A stretch of 43,980 bases of DNA, taken from the IMG/VR virus record IMGVR_UViG_3300020043_002247, positions 1 to 43,980 of that record; one strand, written 5' to 3'. The stretch is from a virus. Taxonomy: Duplodnaviria; Caudoviricetes. The stretch's first letter is position 1. Each line of letters starts with the position of its first letter. The notes beneath the pieces were generated by a model. That model did no database searches, was not told the DNA's origin, and worked only from the letters and a program-made list of their open reading frames with translations. A program made the translations under genes and the position numbers. This document shows positions 12,520 through 18,183 of this stretch, in pieces.

Positions 12520-12905
12520 TCCTCCCATGCAGACTAGGAAACACGTAGACCCGAGAGGCATAACTATCCCCAAGCCATCTGATTATAGATAGCTCGGGAA
12601 GGTTATCAATGCTGACTGAGGTTATCCAGTGAGCCGTCGCATCGTCTAGCCCTAGTCCTGCCTATGCTAGATCGGGGACTTTACGCCACAGGAGCGCCAC
12701 ACCGAGTACCCCGCCACCCTCAGTTTCTACCGTAATCTCTACGGATTCATCCGGTGCCATCCACTCTCGCCAGTCTGGTGTCATTCTCCTGGCACTACCA
12801 CTATGACCCGAACGGCGACCACTTGCCTCGTGTATGGGGACTACACCTTACGGCTTCCTACCCATAACTTCTAAACTGACAAGCATGACCCATAAAGTCA
12901 TAACA
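12520..12905 (-). ncRNA. Candidate structured RNA / long leader of unknown class
   Basis: No credible ORF; nested stems, e.g. 12567-12580/12587-12600 (14 bp, closing with G-U pairs only on minus strand), 12616-12621/12718-12723. Confidence 0.55.
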
Positions 12906-12917
12906 GGTAGCGGCAAT

Positions 12918-13066
12918 AAAAAAGCCCTACAAAGGAGGCTTTAGGCTTGGTTTGCCGCATGTAGAAGATGCCGTACCATCTTATCTACAGCTTTGACGAA
13001 GCCGCCTTTGTAGGGCGTTCTCTCACTGTACGGAGCTTTCTGTTCGGCACCACCCGTGAACAGACA
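12918..13066 (-). ncRNA. Multi-stem RNA ending in U-tract (c4-antisense-like architecture / attenuator)
   Basis: Perfect 12-bp closing stem 12924-12935/13005-13016 followed by U6; inner hairpin with GUACGG loop; 5' hairpin 13039-13064. Confidence 0.65.
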
Positions 13067-13071
13067 ACCTA

Positions 13072-13100
13072 ACTTTACCCCAAATCCCTCAATCTTGCAA
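13072..13100 (-). promoter_or_regulatory. Sigma70-type promoter
   Basis: TTGCAA-17 bp-TAAAGT directly before the first hairpin. Confidence 0.6.
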
Positions 13101-13101
13101 A

Positions 13102-13492
13102 CATACACTCTGTATGGTTGTTGGTACTCGCTGCGTCTGTATTGTCTGTTACGTGCTCACCGCTCTTACGAGTCCCGTGCGACATGCCAGCAGTCGGCTT
13201 ACAGCATCCGTAAGTACCAACACGGCTGGAGACTGTCTACGACCATCCACCCAGGCGTTTCGTGTCGCTCTCGCCCAATCTCCATGCGTGTTGGTGCTGG
13301 CACGCGACAACCGACGCCAGCTCATCGAGACGAGGGGATCATCGTCTGTGTCGCTCAGGTTCTACATAACCCAAACGGTTTACGTCTAGGTTTCCAACTG
13401 GGTTATTAGTGACCGTCTTTCCGGTCTGTCAGGCTCTTATGATGAGCAACCGACCAAGGCGAACTCACCACTTGATAACCACCGGCAAACCA
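13102..13492 (-). ncRNA. Array of long hairpins; candidate sRNA cluster
   Basis: Stems 13440-13470, 13411-13426, 13366-13406, 13296-13321, 13216-13295, 13120-13221; no credible ORF. Confidence 0.65.
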
Positions 13493-13493
13493 T

Positions 13494-13522
13494 ATTTTAC
13501 GCCATTAACGTGGGTTTATTAA
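13494..13522 (-). promoter_or_regulatory. Possible sigma70-type promoter for hairpin array
   Basis: TTAATA-17 bp-TAAAAT; weak -35. Confidence 0.4.
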
Positions 13523-13560
13523 CACTCAAATTCGATTATTTGACACTAGAATTCGGTTAT

Positions 13561-13719
13561 CTACACATCAGAATTCTCCCAATAAAGCTCAACCCAATCG
13601 TCATACGCAGCCCAGCACATTAGCCAATCCCACATTAATTGTTCGTTCTTAGATACATCACAGTAATACTGAGCCATGCGAAGACATGTAGTTTGAGTTG
13701 GAGCAGGAAATTTATCCAT
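13561..13719 (-). CDS. Small Trp-rich hypothetical protein (52 aa, not in ORF track)
   Basis: MDKFPAPTQTTCLRMAQYY...WENSDV*; overlaps stop of upstream gene. Confidence 0.55.
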   Translation of the reverse strand: MDKFPAPTQTTCLRMAQYYCDVSKNEQLMWDWLMCWAAYDDWVELYWENSDV

Positions 13720-13954
13720 TGGCTCTCTCTTTCAAGTAACTCATCATCTCCGCGTTCATCTTCGCTTGCGCCCATTTCTGTGGGCCTGCCAGTTGCATTA
13801 AAGCTAATGAGAACTGTACGAAGTTATATAGCTTCTCAAGCTCTTCTTCATCGACTTCGCCATTGTTAATGCTGTCAAACACTTTGCCAATCCCAATCCG
13901 ATTGCCGTTAATGACTGCTTCCCAATTGAAATCATATTTTTGTGGCTTAGGCAT
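13712..13954 (-). CDS. Hypothetical protein
   Basis: 80 aa, coupled to neighbours. Confidence 0.65.
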   Translation of the reverse strand: MPKPQKYDFNWEAVINGNRIGIGKVFDSINNGEVDEEELEKLYNFVQFSLALMQLAGPQKWAQAKMNAEMMSYLKERANG

Positions 13955-14255
13955 TCTTTTCTTTCAGCTTGGCTTCGATGGCTTTTGCGTATTTCAGTGT
14001 GTCGAAATAACAGTTAGTTACATACTGCTCTGCCATTGCTTCGTATTCTTCATCAGTCAGCCCCACCCATTCTTTCTTTTTGATGTATCCAGCTTTCTCA
14101 AGAACACCATTTACATTTATTAGCTTTGTTGGCTCCGGTTCAGGCTGCGCTAAATGATCATCCAGCCTTTCAATTAAATCCTTATCAGTCGGGCAACCGT
14201 CCCAAAGGTACATCAACGCATTCCTCGCCTGCTGTAATAGTTCGCGGTCAGTCAT
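13947..14255 (-). CDS. Hypothetical accessory protein
   Basis: MTDRELLQQA...EWVGLTDEE...AKAIEAKLKEKN, a mosaic pattern typical of small phage genes. Confidence 0.75.
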   Translation of the reverse strand: MTDRELLQQARNALMYLWDGCPTDKDLIERLDDHLAQPEPEPTKLINVNGVLEKAGYIKKKEWVGLTDEEYEAMAEQYVTNCYFDTLKYAKAIEAKLKEKNA

Positions 14256-14455
14256 CCCTGCCCCCTTGCGCGTACATATATTGGTACGTTTATTTGACTG
14301 CCGTATTTAGTTGCATTTTCTTTTGTTGTAACCAAGCACTTATTACCATCTGTATCAGTAAAGTAATTGCCTAAATCAACGTGTTTAAAACCTTCTTCAC
14401 GGTTGGCATCTGGCACAGTAATCATGCACATCGTGCCTGTATTTTTAAATGTCAT
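14252..14455 (-). CDS. Hypothetical accessory protein
   Basis: 67 aa, ATGA overlaps on both sides, ends RARGQG. Confidence 0.65.
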   Translation of the reverse strand: MTFKNTGTMCMITVPDANREEGFKHVDLGNYFTDTDGNKCLVTTKENATKYGSQINVPIYVRARGQG

Positions 14456-14706
14456 CCCTGCCCCCTTGCGCGGATAGCGTCAGCAGCGGTTTCGTATGCG
14501 GCAGTAACAATTTCGCTATGCCACGCAGCTAATCCTTTGCAAAGAATTGCACATGCTTCGCGTTCTTGTTTTACTCCTATTAAATAACCTTGCCATGCCC
14601 AGTACGAATGTGAACCAGTTACAAATGTAGGACTATCAACAGATTTATGTGCAAGCCATAACTCAAAAAATTGTTGGTCGTCTTGTTCTATGTCTTCCCT
14701 AGTCAT
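14452..14706 (-). CDS. Hypothetical accessory protein
   Basis: 84 aa, EREACA...AADAIRARGQG. Confidence 0.7.
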   Translation of the reverse strand: MTREDIEQDDQQFFELWLAHKSVDSPTFVTGSHSYWAWQGYLIGVKQEREACAILCKGLAAWHSEIVTAAYETAADAIRARGQG

Positions 14707-14900
14707 CCCTGCCCCCTCGTTAGCTTTGCCATGATCTTCTTAACGTCAGCTACCTTGCCTGATTTGTTCATGTAGATGCTCTCTGTCTTATGCTCAGAGC
14801 ACAGAAGGCATATCCACCTGCCACTTGTCTTACTCTTACGGAAAACCCCTCCTGTGGTTTCACGTATGCACTGGCAGCTAGTACAAAAGCGAGTAGTCAT
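14703..14900 (-). CDS. Small Zn-ribbon protein
   Basis: CTSC...CLLC. Confidence 0.65.
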   Translation of the reverse strand: MTTRFCTSCQCIRETTGGVFRKSKTSGRWICLLCSEHKTESIYMNKSGKVADVKKIMAKLTRGQG

Positions 14901-14903
14901 TCT

Positions 14904-15053
14904 CTAATCCTTGCTTTTTTTAGCCTCAGCTTCTAATACCCGAAGATCATTAGCCGCATCAGATACGCCATGCCAATCACCACGAGCTACCATTACTAAC
15001 AAATACTCCATCAGAATTTTGTGTTGTGCTGCATGGTCGTGGTAATTAGTCAT
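14904..15053 (-). CDS. Small hypothetical protein (49 aa, not in ORF track)
   Basis: MTNYHDH...VARGDWHGVSDAANDLRVLEA; fills gap in operon. Confidence 0.6.
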   Translation of the reverse strand: MTNYHDHAAQHKILMEYLLVMVARGDWHGVSDAANDLRVLEAEAKKSKD

Positions 15054-15237
15054 GTTCTTCTCTTGCTTTCATCATTGCGTCTGCTAATTTGTATACACGT
15101 TTTGCTGTTATTCTATCGTCGCCTTCGTAATCACGATAGGTCAATCCTACATTTGATATTTCGCCTTGCAATATTTTTATTGCAAAGTAATCACGTAAAT
15201 CCATGCCTTCACTTCTGTTGTTTGGAAATGCTTTCAT
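15046..15237 (-). CDS. Hypothetical protein (GMxLRDYFA family)
   Basis: AFP..GMDLRDYFA..YKLADAMMKARE. Confidence 0.75.
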   Translation of the reverse strand: MKAFPNNRSEGMDLRDYFAIKILQGEISNVGLTYRDYEGDDRITAKRVYKLADAMMKAREEHD

Positions 15238-15521
15238 TATTTAACCTTTCTAGTAAATAATTCTGGGTTATAGGTATAACTTGCTCCGTCGTCATAGACC
15301 ACATGAACTTGACCCGACCAATAGTTCCAACACCCCCAATAGGTCTGACCATTTATATGAGCTGCATACATACGCTTTAAAGTAGTTGTCTCAGGTCTGC
15401 TTATACAAGCAGTATTCAACAAAACAATCTTCCCACCTGAACTGTTAAGTGCCTCAAACCATTCTTCTTCAGCGTATGCTAGGTTAGATACTAAAACCAA
15501 GGCAATCAATAGTTTTTTCAT
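15237..15521 (-). CDS. Small exported protein
   Basis: Signal peptide MKKLLIALVLVSNLAYA; two Cys. Confidence 0.7.
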   Translation of the reverse strand: MKKLLIALVLVSNLAYAEEEWFEALNSSGGKIVLLNTACISRPETTTLKRMYAAHINGQTYWGCWNYWSGQVHVVYDDGASYTYNPELFTRKVK

Positions 15522-15712
15522 TTTGGCTCCCTCTTACCGTAACCTGCCGCATAAGCATTCTTTAATTTTTCACACATGTCGTCACAACCTTTTGCATATC
15601 CCTTATGCCAAAAGACTAAACATAACGATATGTGCCAAGGCTTTATCTCACCAGCGTTATTCAACATTGCAAATTCTTTTTTAATTATTTCGTCTATCAT
15701 CTCTGGAGTCAT
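15518..15712 (-). CDS. Hypothetical protein
   Basis: 64 aa, ATGA overlaps. Confidence 0.6.
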   Translation of the reverse strand: MTPEMIDEIIKKEFAMLNNAGEIKPWHISLCLVFWHKGYAKGCDDMCEKLKNAYAAGYGKREPK

Positions 15713-15909
15713 ACAACCTCCTCAACAGTAATCTGGTAAGCCTTGCCGTTCATGTCTGTCACTGTTAACGTCTTCTTTGTACTTAGGAACTGACCATAGT
15801 CCCCTAAGTCATAAGCAATGTGACCGATCACATCCAACATCTTAGAATCATCGTTAGCCAGTAACGTGCGCTTAATCAGGGTCACTATGTAGTCGCAATA
15901 AGCAATCAT
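15709..15909 (-). CDS. Hypothetical protein
   Basis: 66 aa, AAGGA RBS. Confidence 0.65.
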   Translation of the reverse strand: MIAYCDYIVTLIKRTLLANDDSKMLDVIGHIAYDLGDYGQFLSTKKTLTVTDMNGKAYQITVEEVV

Positions 15910-15911
15910 GA

Positions 15912-16142
15912 TTATTCCTTTGAGTCAGCGTAACGAGCTTCGTACATAGCATCTAGTCTGTATTCTTCACGGTTCTCGTAATTCCAATCTAAGTCAGGTA
16001 TCAATGAAAGCATCTCAGTAGTGCCACAGTGTGGGCAAATATCTACTGTGCCATCACTAGCACCAGTGTTATCGTTTACAGTCTCAATGTCGTCTTCTTC
16101 AACAATCTTTTTGCAGCAATCACATTTGTAATATTTATTCAT
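15912..16142 (-). CDS. Small Zn-ribbon protein
   Basis: CDCC...CPHC; GAGG RBS. Confidence 0.65.
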   Translation of the reverse strand: MNKYYKCDCCKKIVEEDDIETVNDNTGASDGTVDICPHCGTTEMLSLIPDLDWNYENREEYRLDAMYEARYADSKE

Positions 16143-16242: not shown

Positions 16243-16530
16243 TTAGCGACTCGTAACTTTGACGGAGAAAACAGCAGAAGTCTTTGTGTACTTGAGGAGA
16301 GTATCTGCGTCGATACCGAGATCAGCAGCCAGAGCTTTCCAATCAATAGTTGAACGGTTAGCTTCGATGACTGTGGCTTTGAAGAGATCACCCTCGAACA
16401 CTTTGTTGCCGCCTGGTGCAGTAGCTGCATCCTTGAGGTCAGACTTGATTACGTCAGCTTGCTTTTCTAACGTAGCGATTTGAGCTAAAAGTGAGCCGAG
16501 AGTGTCGATGGTGTTGAGATCGTTTTTCAT
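16243..16530 (-). CDS. Hypothetical protein, first gene of accessory operon
   Basis: 95 aa, AAGGA RBS, directly after strong promoter. Confidence 0.75.
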   Translation of the reverse strand: MKNDLNTIDTLGSLLAQIATLEKQADVIKSDLKDAATAPGGNKVFEGDLFKATVIEANRSTIDWKALAADLGIDADTLLKYTKTSAVFSVKVTSR

Positions 16531-16574
16531 GGTCGGTTTCCTTGGTCGGTTATATGGCTAAGTGCCATGACTGA

Positions 16575-16603
16575 ACTTTAATTCTAAGTTAAAGTGGTGT
16601 CAA
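16575..16603 (-). promoter_or_regulatory. Strong sigma70 promoter with overlapping palindromic operator
   Basis: TTGACA-17 bp-TAAAGT; ACTTTAA-N7-TTAAAGT at 16575-16595. Confidence 0.8.
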
Positions 16604-16622: not shown

Positions 16623-16916
16623 TCAAATATCTTCATTGTTTTTTTCTATTGGCATCCCGTCCTCCAATAGCCTACGTATTGTTACATTTAAAGCATCAAG
16701 CTCATCCATCTTCCTTATAGCCCACGCCCTGCGGTTCCCATGCCAGCCCATCATTGACCCCTGATGGCAGTCGTAGCAGAGGGCTACACAGGTGTACTGG
16801 CTGTGTTGTTTAACGTGGTGGGCAGAACTAGGTGGAGGGGCGTTACACACGCTGCAGGGCAGGCTCTTGACTCTCTGTAGATGCCTACGCTCTGCAGCAT
16901 TAAGCTTGTTGTTCAT
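16623..16916 (-). CDS. HNH-like nuclease (Ref/DUF968-like)
   Basis: LPCSVC...AHH...ALCYDCHQG. Confidence 0.65.
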   Translation of the reverse strand: MNNKLNAAERRHLQRVKSLPCSVCNAPPPSSAHHVKQHSQYTCVALCYDCHQGSMMGWHGNRRAWAIRKMDELDALNVTIRRLLEDGMPIEKNNEDI

Positions 16917-18183
16917 AATTTGCTATGCGTTGACCTATCCATGCCATAACTGGCACTGCCATTGAATTGCCTAAAGCTTTATATCTTGGCCCATCAGGCG
17001 ACTCTACAGCTTTGCGCCAAGGGATATTGGTGTAATTGTCTGGGAAGCCTTGCAAGCGTTCGCATTCAACGGGGGTTAGACGGCGCACGGCCATGTTGGG
17101 CTGCATGACCGTCCCTTCAAACCCACCACCTGCTGTGCGTGCCTTCAACGTACCAAACGCATCGACCATCGCGTTCTGTTCTTCATCTAAACCAATTGGC
17201 TGCGCCGCGAACAAACTACCGTTGGTTGCACTAGCATTACCGTTCCAATTACGACCATAAGCAGCTGTCAAGCAATCAGCGGTTTCACGAAATGCTATTG
17301 GCTGCGCTACGGCTAACTGATTGTCACCAGCATCTGCCCTTAATGTTGGACATAACCCAGGCTCTGCATCCCCATAGCCAAGCCGTTTTAATTTACCTGG
17401 TTCAAAAGCAATCGGCTGCGCTACATAACTTGTTTGCTTCATACCTGCTTCAGCAGCCAACGCACCAACAATCTGCCCATCCCCGTTCACCCAACGCACT
17501 TCATCGCGGGTATTTTGGGCAAACGCCATCGGCTGCGCTACTTCACTTGATTGGGGGCTTCTGCTTGGGTCGTTACTTGCTGTAAGGCTTGGTGCAACAA
17601 CTCTGGCAACTTCTTGCCTCTTTTCTCTGCTCGGCGCAGAATCCCCGCGCATGCTCTCTCGCTCAAAAAGAACTTCTGCGGCAGGTCGCCAGTCTCCAAG
17701 GTATCCGACAACGAACACACGACGGCGTCGCTGGGCCACTCCGAAGTATTGAGCGTCAAGCACTCGGTAGGCGAACCCATACCCGAGTTCAGCCAACGCC
17801 CCAAGGAAGGAACCAAAGTCCCGTCCACCGCCTGAACTGAGGACACCCGGCACGTTTTCCCATACGAACCACTGGGGTCTAAAGTGGTCAAGAATCCCGC
17901 AATAGACAAGGGCAAGGTTTCCTCGCGGGTCGGCAAGTCCTTTGCGGAGTCCGGCAACTGAAAAAGATTGGCAAGGGGTTCCTCCGACCAGAAGGTCAAT
18001 TGATTCAAGATTCCACTCCTTATACTTTGTCATGTCACCAAAGTTAGTGACTTCGGGGTAGTGATGTTTGAGTACCGCAGATGGGAAAGGCTCAATCTCA
18101 GAATAACCAACCGCTTCCCATCCCAATGGATGCCAAGCAACTGATGCAGCCTCAATACCGGCGCAAACAGATAAATATTTCAT
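16900..18183 (-). CDS. DNA (cytosine-5) methyltransferase
   Basis: Motif I CAGIEA, IV GGTPCQSFS, VI ENVPG, VIII QRRRRVF, IX RRLTPVECERLQGFP, X YKALGNSMAV. Confidence 0.95.
   Translation of the reverse strand: MKYLSVCAGIEAASVAWHPLGWEAVGYSEIEPFPSAVLKHHYPEVTNFGDMTKYKEWNLESIDLLVGGTPCQSFSVAGLRKGLADPRGNLALVYCGILDHFRPQWFVWENVPGVLSSGGGRDFGSFLGALAELGYGFAYRVLDAQYFGVAQRRRRVFVVGYLGDWRPAAEVLFERESMRGDSAPSREKRQEVARVVAPSLTASNDPSRSPQSSEVAQPMAFAQNTRDEVRWVNGDGQIVGALAAEAGMKQTSYVAQPIAFEPGKLKRLGYGDAEPGLCPTLRADAGDNQLAVAQPIAFRETADCLTAAYGRNWNGNASATNGSLFAAQPIGLDEEQNAMVDAFGTLKARTAGGGFEGTVMQPNMAVRRLTPVECERLQGFPDNYTNIPWRKAVESPDGPRYKALGNSMAVPVMAWIGQRIANYEQQA
17538..18008 (-). CDS. Overprinted gene in alternative frame of MTase (M.EcoHK31I beta-like)
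   Basis: 156-aa open frame; TTG start 7 nt after TAAGGAG; RWLNSGM..EWPS..CSLSDTLET..FLSERACAGILRRAEKRGKKLP. Confidence 0.7.
   Translation of the reverse strand: MNQLTFWSEEPLANLFQLPDSAKDLPTREETLPLSIAGFLTTLDPSGSYGKTCRVSSVQAVDGTLVPSLGRWLNSGMGSPTECLTLNTSEWPSDAVVCSLSDTLETGDLPQKFFLSERACAGILRRAEKRGKKLPELLHQALQQVTTQAEAPNQVK

Follow-up and report, generated by a model that had tools for sequence, protein, structure and literature searches.

We analyzed a virus record of 43,980 nucleotides, about 80% complete, which we refer to as the window. Its open reading frames include a terminase, a portal, a DnaB-like helicase and a replication initiator, and freshwater metagenomes contain its close relatives. 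On the minus strand we observed a sigma-70-like site, 13 small genes, a gene-poor gap of approximately 1 kb (12545-13560) and the packaging genes, in this order. The sigma-70-like site (16575..16603, minus strand) reads TTGACA/TAAAGT and agrees with the consensus at 10 of 12 positions. Judged by this consensus match only, it corresponds to the TTGACA promoter that an initial annotation had placed before the first gene. A similar promoter-like site precedes the homologous first gene in many relatives. The first early gene (16243..16530, minus strand) encodes 95 amino acids and belongs to the phage-only family phrog_6244, to which no function is assigned. It is followed by 12 further small genes (13561..16142, minus strand), mostly without assigned function, which fill the space down to the array described below. 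We refer to these genes as the early accessory operon, since their position suggests early timing. No integrase was detected among the 55 ORFs of the window, nor among the 58 larger ORFs of two other phage records, G019 and G006. No antirepressor was found among the ORFs scanned in this record of about 80% completeness, and a tRNA search of the window returned none.

The leader of the first early gene (16526..16553, minus strand) is the predicted target of the RNA considered in this study. It contains the Shine-Dalgarno sequence at 16543-16539 and the start codon at 16530-16528. The same 8-nt word stands on either side of the Shine-Dalgarno sequence (16544-16551 and 16531-16538), so the doubling reported by the initial annotation was confirmed.

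Several observations concern the neighbouring genes. A 156-aa open frame (17538-18008, minus strand) overlaps the DNA methyltransferase gene (16900-18183) in a different frame. The same purine-rich junction was detected at the ends and starts of three consecutive small genes (14249-14262, 14449-14462 and 14700-14713). Contigs of relatives skip exactly between these junctions, which suggests shuffling of gene cassettes. At 13549-13570, the end of the 52-aa gene before the array, 22 bases of the window were absent in all four sequencing runs compared.

The gap contains a gene-free modular array of about 575 nt (12915..13490, minus strand), which is a predicted structured RNA (z = -4.2; 0 of 100 shuffles folded as well). 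The array is a mosaic of modules also present in other freshwater phages. A weak promoter-like site precedes it (13494..13522, minus strand, -10 hexamer 13499-13494); its match of 9/12 is not above the shuffle background. A -10-like hexamer was seen by eye just upstream of the array in all 10 relatives inspected. The first module is hairpin A (13440..13470, minus strand). It is followed on the same strand by module T (13411..13430), a short hairpin with a purine-rich hexaloop that is found also in L005, L020, L042, L055 and L085, and by a local hairpin at 13296..13321, which has an alternative long-range pairing with the insert of module F. Further, module E (13217..13294, minus strand) has a constant outer stem, a 2x2 internal loop and a variable cargo, with 33 distinct inserts of 26-146 nt in 61 copies. 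Its cargo in the window is module K (13235..13276, minus strand). Module F (13123..13216, minus strand) has a constant outer stem around a variable cargo of 62 nt here, and 22 distinct inserts were counted in 50 copies from other loci. Module G (12918..13068, minus strand) is 83-87% identical in L014, L015, L224, L225 and L656 and ends with an intrinsic-terminator-like hairpin (12942-12921) and a U run. In relatives, many array modules finish as a stem plus ACCA. Modules E and F look like processing cassettes, possibly for RNase III or RNase P.

We noted further features of this and related arrays. Modules E and F (13123-13294; L005, L007, L010, L020, L082, L291, L580 and others) form tandem arrays in several phage groups. 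A tRNA-Gly-like gene was seen by eye in the L010 array (about 15680-15755), and the L448 array carries a weak tRNA-Sec-like cargo (1651-1735, 25 bits). In L020 (about 13550-13600) the array holds what looks, by eye against the consensus, like a hammerhead core. A 13-bp palindrome after several AGCGA repeats flanks the arrays of L025, L030, L033, L043, L045, L048, L055, L065 and L071. One subgroup has it also within its replication gene; these may be origin or operator sites. Behind the terminator of the window's array there is a second gene-free, hairpin-rich stretch (12600-12915, minus strand), which had no homologue in the loci compared. A promoter-like site matching 11/12 positions (12609-12582) lies behind this stretch and precedes a DUF5710 gene.

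Rfam gave no match to the array, and modules E and F have no Rfam family. Among GenBank phages there was no match to the array, and the matches to the hairpin of the phages described below as group 3a were not beyond chance. No description of the array was found in the open-licence papers, result listings and abstract openings that the literature search covered. Six supplementary files of Fremin et al. 2023 (PMC10690425) contained no match. The unnamed candidates of that study may include modules E, F or G.

Hairpin A is predicted to consist of a 7-bp upper stem, a small internal loop, an apical stem of 2-3 bp and a UUGGUC hexaloop (13457-13452). The 7-bp stem (13470-13464 / 13446-13440) proposed by the initial annotation forms in the predicted folds, and a lower stem may reach about 13490/13420. 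The annotation had further stated that the loop displays 12 nt (minus strand, 13448-13459) exactly complementary to the leader (minus strand, 16540-16551). The complementarity is exact. The display holds for approximately half of the segment in the predicted folds: the hexaloop and the last U are open, but the flanking CC and GG pair together. The computed cost of opening all 12 nt is 5.3 kcal/mol. A second, degenerate copy of the word is present in the 5' arm of hairpin A. Close relatives found in sequencing runs span both the hairpin and the leader, and none of the 40 differences listed, out of 288, falls at either site. RNA data sets were absent from the runs listed, a result that has no bearing on expression.

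We estimated how unusual this complementarity is. The window contains 70 inverted 12-mers and about 49 separate non-palindromic matches of at least 12 nt; therefore a 12-nt match is by itself ordinary. A 12-mer to this one leader arose in 0.1% of 2000 dinucleotide-shuffled arrays. In a part missed by the initial annotation, the pairing can continue from position -21 as far as the AUG, which gives 20-21 bp. The predicted duplex reaches -30.8 kcal/mol, the best among 60 gene starts (others -16.1 +/- 3.3). For the 12-mer, about -13 kcal/mol net would be left once both RNAs have been opened. The window's hairpin-leader pair ranked third by energy among 4680 real pairs. The leader site ranked seventh of 10,986 genome windows, with the hairpin's own two matches set aside. 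In shuffled controls none of 20 arrays reached -30.5 kcal/mol with this leader, but 19 of 20 reached the energy with some of the 60 leaders. Therefore the energy counts only given the prior of a promoter-proximal target. Only one gene of the window is a predicted target of hairpin A.

These numbers bear on the simplest alternative, chance: hairpin A would be just another variable cargo of the array, with a functionless complement in the leader. The abundance of equal matches in the window, the any-leader shuffles and the free variation of cargo sequences all favour it. It leaves unexplained that a different phage group, chosen by its leader only, has the same 12-mer at the tip of a hairpin, and that the tip is shared with the bacterial prophage RNA IsrB (both below). 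We regard chance as highly improbable.

The initial annotation had suggested a multivalent array, in which a second loop (13309-13315) and a third segment (13240-13246) bind the same leader. Both 7-mers are present. Partial opening of the second loop, which lies in the local hairpin at 13296..13321, is confined to local folds (span of 100 or less); at spans of 150 or more the loop is fully paired. The third segment supplies the 3' strand to an internal stem in module K, and both strands of this stem change together in L007, L010 and L011, so the segment needs no outside partner. In shuffled arrays three separate 7-mer sites occurred in 2.6% and two in 13%. There was also no general excess of words complementary to ribosome-binding sites in 43 dereplicated arrays. 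Words of at least 8 nt were found for 98 of 1187 own starts, as compared with 3951 of 49854 foreign starts. For words of at least 10 nt the values were 14/1187 and 336/49854, and 12 of the 14 own cases came from the window and one clade. The multivalent reading is thus not supported.

We compared phages that share the first early gene. There were 78 viral and 80 metagenome loci; 43 had a visible array, and 30 were left after dereplication. Among these 30 phages, 4 had both the loop and the leader word, 26 had neither and none was discordant (Fisher p = 3.6e-5). The four are the window, L005, L218 and L222; the other 26 use a different leader and have no loop. A T-type word (T in place of C) stands at the start of two or three early genes in L005, L218, L222, L301 and L304, and the arrays of these loci contain a hairpin in which the identical hexaloop precedes an A in place of G (A-type). 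In a quick terminase tree (SH-aLRT only) the L005-type loci form one clade, the window branches separately and the sister group has neither loop nor leader. Because of this placement the four positive phages count as two lineages. The change between A-type and G-type also closes the hairpin itself (U-A vs C-G) and therefore needs no outside partner.

Other leaders and hairpins were observed in the same material. Most relatives (leaders L001-L078) double AGCGA around the Shine-Dalgarno sequence of the first gene, and we detected no matching anti-leader element in their arrays. A separate clade (L092, L096, L101, L103, L104 and 8 more) has a leader with a doubled CCGAC word. In this clade a hairpin with an 8-11-nt complement lies 3.4-4.3 kb downstream, between the terminase and the next gene. 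It was detected in 13 of 18 loci with at least 3 kb of downstream sequence, all of one lineage, and may be an independent anti-leader RNA. In the window a sequence very similar to the core of the A-type hairpin occurs at 15787-15802 (minus strand), inside the gene 15709-15909, and is probably due to chance (E 0.23, model R1).

The loop core recurs at the tips of long hairpins in three other phage groups, and in two of these the complementary word stands at the phages' own early start codons. In one group A for G in the loop is matched by T for C in the leaders. A scan for the A-type hairpin returned 17 loci, 13 of them from the second group, including the near-complete records G001 and G002, which have the loop and hold the complementary word only in the hairpin itself. 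A scan for the leader word of the window returned 83 loci, 79 of them with flanks (854 kb). Five related loci among these 79, which had been chosen by the leader word alone, carry the exact 12-mer of the window. In the four of them whose hairpin is complete (group 3a), it forms the tip of a 70-nt hairpin directly behind module F. Loci collected by other routes, 1.79 Mb in total, did not contain the exact 12-mer. Group 3a differs in kind from the window: these phages have 37 kb and their own DNA polymerase, and share only one short gene with the window (tblastx). In G019 the 70-nt hairpin lies directly before the DNA polymerase. The array of group 3a is on the strand opposite to the early cassette, so that the DNA orientation is flipped and the RNA complementarity is kept. 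Across the window and the four hairpins of group 3a (five rows, aligned architecture) the stems covary while the loop is fixed, which was reached in 0 of 500 shuffles.

Loop and leader types were compared in whole records. A-type loops occurred only with T-type leaders (G006, G007 and G008, 2-3 each, no C-type). G-type loops occurred with C-type and also with T-type leaders (the window, G019, G170, G171 and G172). This matching fits the pairing rules, because A with C would be a mismatch whereas G with U would be a wobble pair. Loop and leader types obey the pairing rules in 8 of the 8 records holding both. In the tally of 14 records including the window, which were picked by leader or by loop and are not a random sample, 8 had both, 2 had the loop only and 4 the leader only. 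The leader without the loop was found together with short arrays in G016, G017 and G018, which are complete, and in G015 (84%). Pairing of the 5' CCUU in the group-3a loop is possible with the leader of the window (14 bp) and not with the group's own leaders, where the register is 9 bp. Both leader words are generic; they occur in about 610 and 83 viral stretches, and 18 matches were found in 151 bacterial genomes.

Homology of the whole hairpin across the groups is putative. Models built without the window miss its hairpin: R1 did so, as did R3, which has a poor consensus structure, and the top nhmmer match had E 0.9. Model R2 includes the window, so that its match there is circular; it also matches the hairpins of L661 and, with E 0.13, of L005. 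A 15-mer scan with the window hairpin gave 118 loci, none of them in an array, and missed group 3a, whose flanking sequence is different. When the scaffold was scanned with the loop left free, the results were three loci already known and two matches probably due to chance. In the 36 of 64 parts of the database that were covered, a scan for the doubled word found no window-type leader.

The detection of IsrB, a small RNA of the Salmonella prophages Gifsy-1 and Gifsy-2, dates from 2008. The tip of hairpin A (13447..13464, minus strand) is identical in 17 of 18 letters to the IsrB loop of Gifsy-2; as the comparison started from ten tip letters, 7 of the 8 remaining letters are identical. The Gifsy-2 IsrB scores 99 bits with the Rfam model RF01386. 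With this model the window had no match at E <=5 or <=10 (gathering threshold 35 bits), and the hairpin of G019 scored 9.6 bits (E 1.04), below the threshold of 35 bits. In both cases the sequence forms a hairpin tip (that of the middle hairpin in IsrB), is phage-encoded and lies near early genes. The differences are considerable. IsrB is a free-standing RNA of 88-94 nt with three hairpins, in which a terminator of its own immediately follows the loop hairpin, whereas hairpin A heads a 575-nt array, has different stems and has its next terminator-like site approximately 500 nt downstream (12942-12921). IsrB overlaps the leader of recE, a gene of a lambdoid prophage, in cis-antisense, whereas hairpin A is on the same strand as its predicted target, between small genes and the terminase region and at a distance of 3 kb from the leader. 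A single exact complement of the loop occurs in the whole of the Gifsy-2 record, namely this cis-antisense site upstream of recE, in its leader. IsrB was detected on northern blots, is induced by starvation and overlaps its flanking genes, according to the accessible part of PMC2330248; it is expressed from a resident prophage, according to the accessible part of PMC7067206. The Rfam description of RF01386 states that it binds Hfq. No target of IsrB is named in these parts of the two papers or in the open-licence listings and abstract openings searched. The near-identity of the tips makes a functional role of hairpin A as an RNA, though predicted, more credible. That Gifsy-2 has no trans target of its own lowers confidence in the own leader as the whole story.

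Other phage RNAs offer a comparison. Like the proposed role of hairpin A, c4 of P1/P7 (RF01695) and CI of P4 are phage RNAs that control phage mRNA by pairing. They occupy the 5' end of the very transcript that they regulate and from which they are cut, use two separate antisense segments for paired targets, act on an antirepressor operon of a temperate phage and serve lysogenic immunity. Hairpin A lies 3.1 kb downstream of its predicted target and, in group 3a, on the opposite strand. The RF01695 model gave no match in the window. Hairpins of c4 and CI are substrates of RNase P, as described in the accessible parts of PMC8201110 and PMC5499578, and by analogy the stem-plus-ACCA ends of the array modules may resemble such substrates. 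P22 sar, lambda OOP and STnc6030 of BTP1 are likewise phage RNAs that block translation or destabilise phage mRNA, and STnc6030 acts in superinfection exclusion (PMC12197685, accessible part). These three are fully complementary cis-antisense RNAs, in contrast to hairpin A, which would act in trans through a short loop on a word common to several genes and phages.

The recurrence of the loop, the type matching and the near-IsrB loop speak for the trans-acting RNA that the initial annotation had proposed, but the loop is also present in phages that have no trans target of their own. One explanation is that the loop binds a conserved host molecule, such as a protein, an mRNA or the CCA end of a tRNA by analogy with the T-box bulge. 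The match to the leader would then be secondary or incidental, reflecting a common strong ribosome-binding spacer. In accordance with this, Salmonella prophages and freshwater phages share an almost unchanged tip, which goes beyond what a private phage target would need and is kept where an own target is absent (G001, G002 and Gifsy-2); the starvation induction of IsrB (PMC2330248, accessible part) also fits. We found no corresponding host site: 8 matches against 10 control matches in 101 Burkholderiales genomes, counts at control level in 5 MAGs, and no loop-complementary site in four 16S rRNA loci. The host itself was guessed from four of the five module-bearing MAG contigs only. A search for a tRNA-end pattern in 5 genomes gave no match, and this pattern is uninformative. 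A host partner leaves both the 4/0/0/26 distribution of loop and leader word and the type matching unexplained. We consider this explanation rather unlikely.

Hairpin A could also be mainly a weapon against other phages, in superinfection or co-infection exclusion, with pairing to the own leader tolerated since the RNA appears after the early genes have acted. Loop-only phages (G001, G002) and leader-only phages (G015-G018) coexist among similar array-bearing records, and the group-3a loop pairs better with the leader of the window than with its own. The expression of IsrB from a resident prophage (PMC7067206) and the RNA-based precedent of STnc6030 (PMC12197685), both taken from accessible parts of these papers, point in the same direction. 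Against this, the common hosts that such a role presumes are hypothetical for these phages, and the leader of the window doubles the word and so strengthens self-pairing, where a mere bystander should lose it. Exclusion as the main role therefore appears quite unlikely to us. That the word is instead a DNA element, an operator or recombination site used in both orientations, would fit the two direct and one inverted copies in the window but is largely refuted and in our view close to negligible, as the orientation varies (inverted in the window, direct in group 3a) with RNA complementarity kept, the stems covary with G-U pairs on one strand and IsrB is an RNA.

We conclude that hairpin A is a real, conserved element, a predicted RNA that shares the tip of IsrB and stands outside both RF01386 and the c4/CI type. 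Our preferred reading, to which we give a probability of about one half, is that it is an IsrB-like anti-leader RNA that would block early translation of its own phage and possibly of competitors. The basis is drawn from sequence: the complementarity, the identity with the IsrB loop, the recurrence in four phage groups and the matching of loop and leader types. In this anti-leader scheme the array would be transcribed from its own weak promoter-like site, later than the early genes, and the module would be released by processing, possibly through cuts at the stem-plus-ACCA borders. The UUGGUC hexaloop would first contact the repeated leader word. The duplex would then zip across the Shine-Dalgarno sequence and the AUG and halt translation of the first gene; expression of the genes behind it might also be lowered, by polarity. 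Other freshwater phages commonly carry this leader word, and so early genes of a co-infecting phage would be silenced by the loop as well.

A wider reading is that phages of Proteobacteria share a family of RNAs with the UUGGUC loop, of which IsrB is the only named member, and that it is swapped as an array cartridge and used for both own shut-off and silencing of competitors. We offer it tentatively, as possible and still doubtful. If true, it would mean RNA-level warfare between phages and would give IsrB a function. That an IsrB-type loop occurs in freshwater phage groups beside matching early leaders makes the role of this RNA family specifically and cheaply testable. The array, in which constant stems carry interchangeable cargo RNAs and which has no Rfam family, also deserves its own study. 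In summary, if the anti-leader reading is right, phages with no evident repressor or integrase may use a single short RNA, directed at a shared leader word, to set the timing of their early genes or to hold back rivals.
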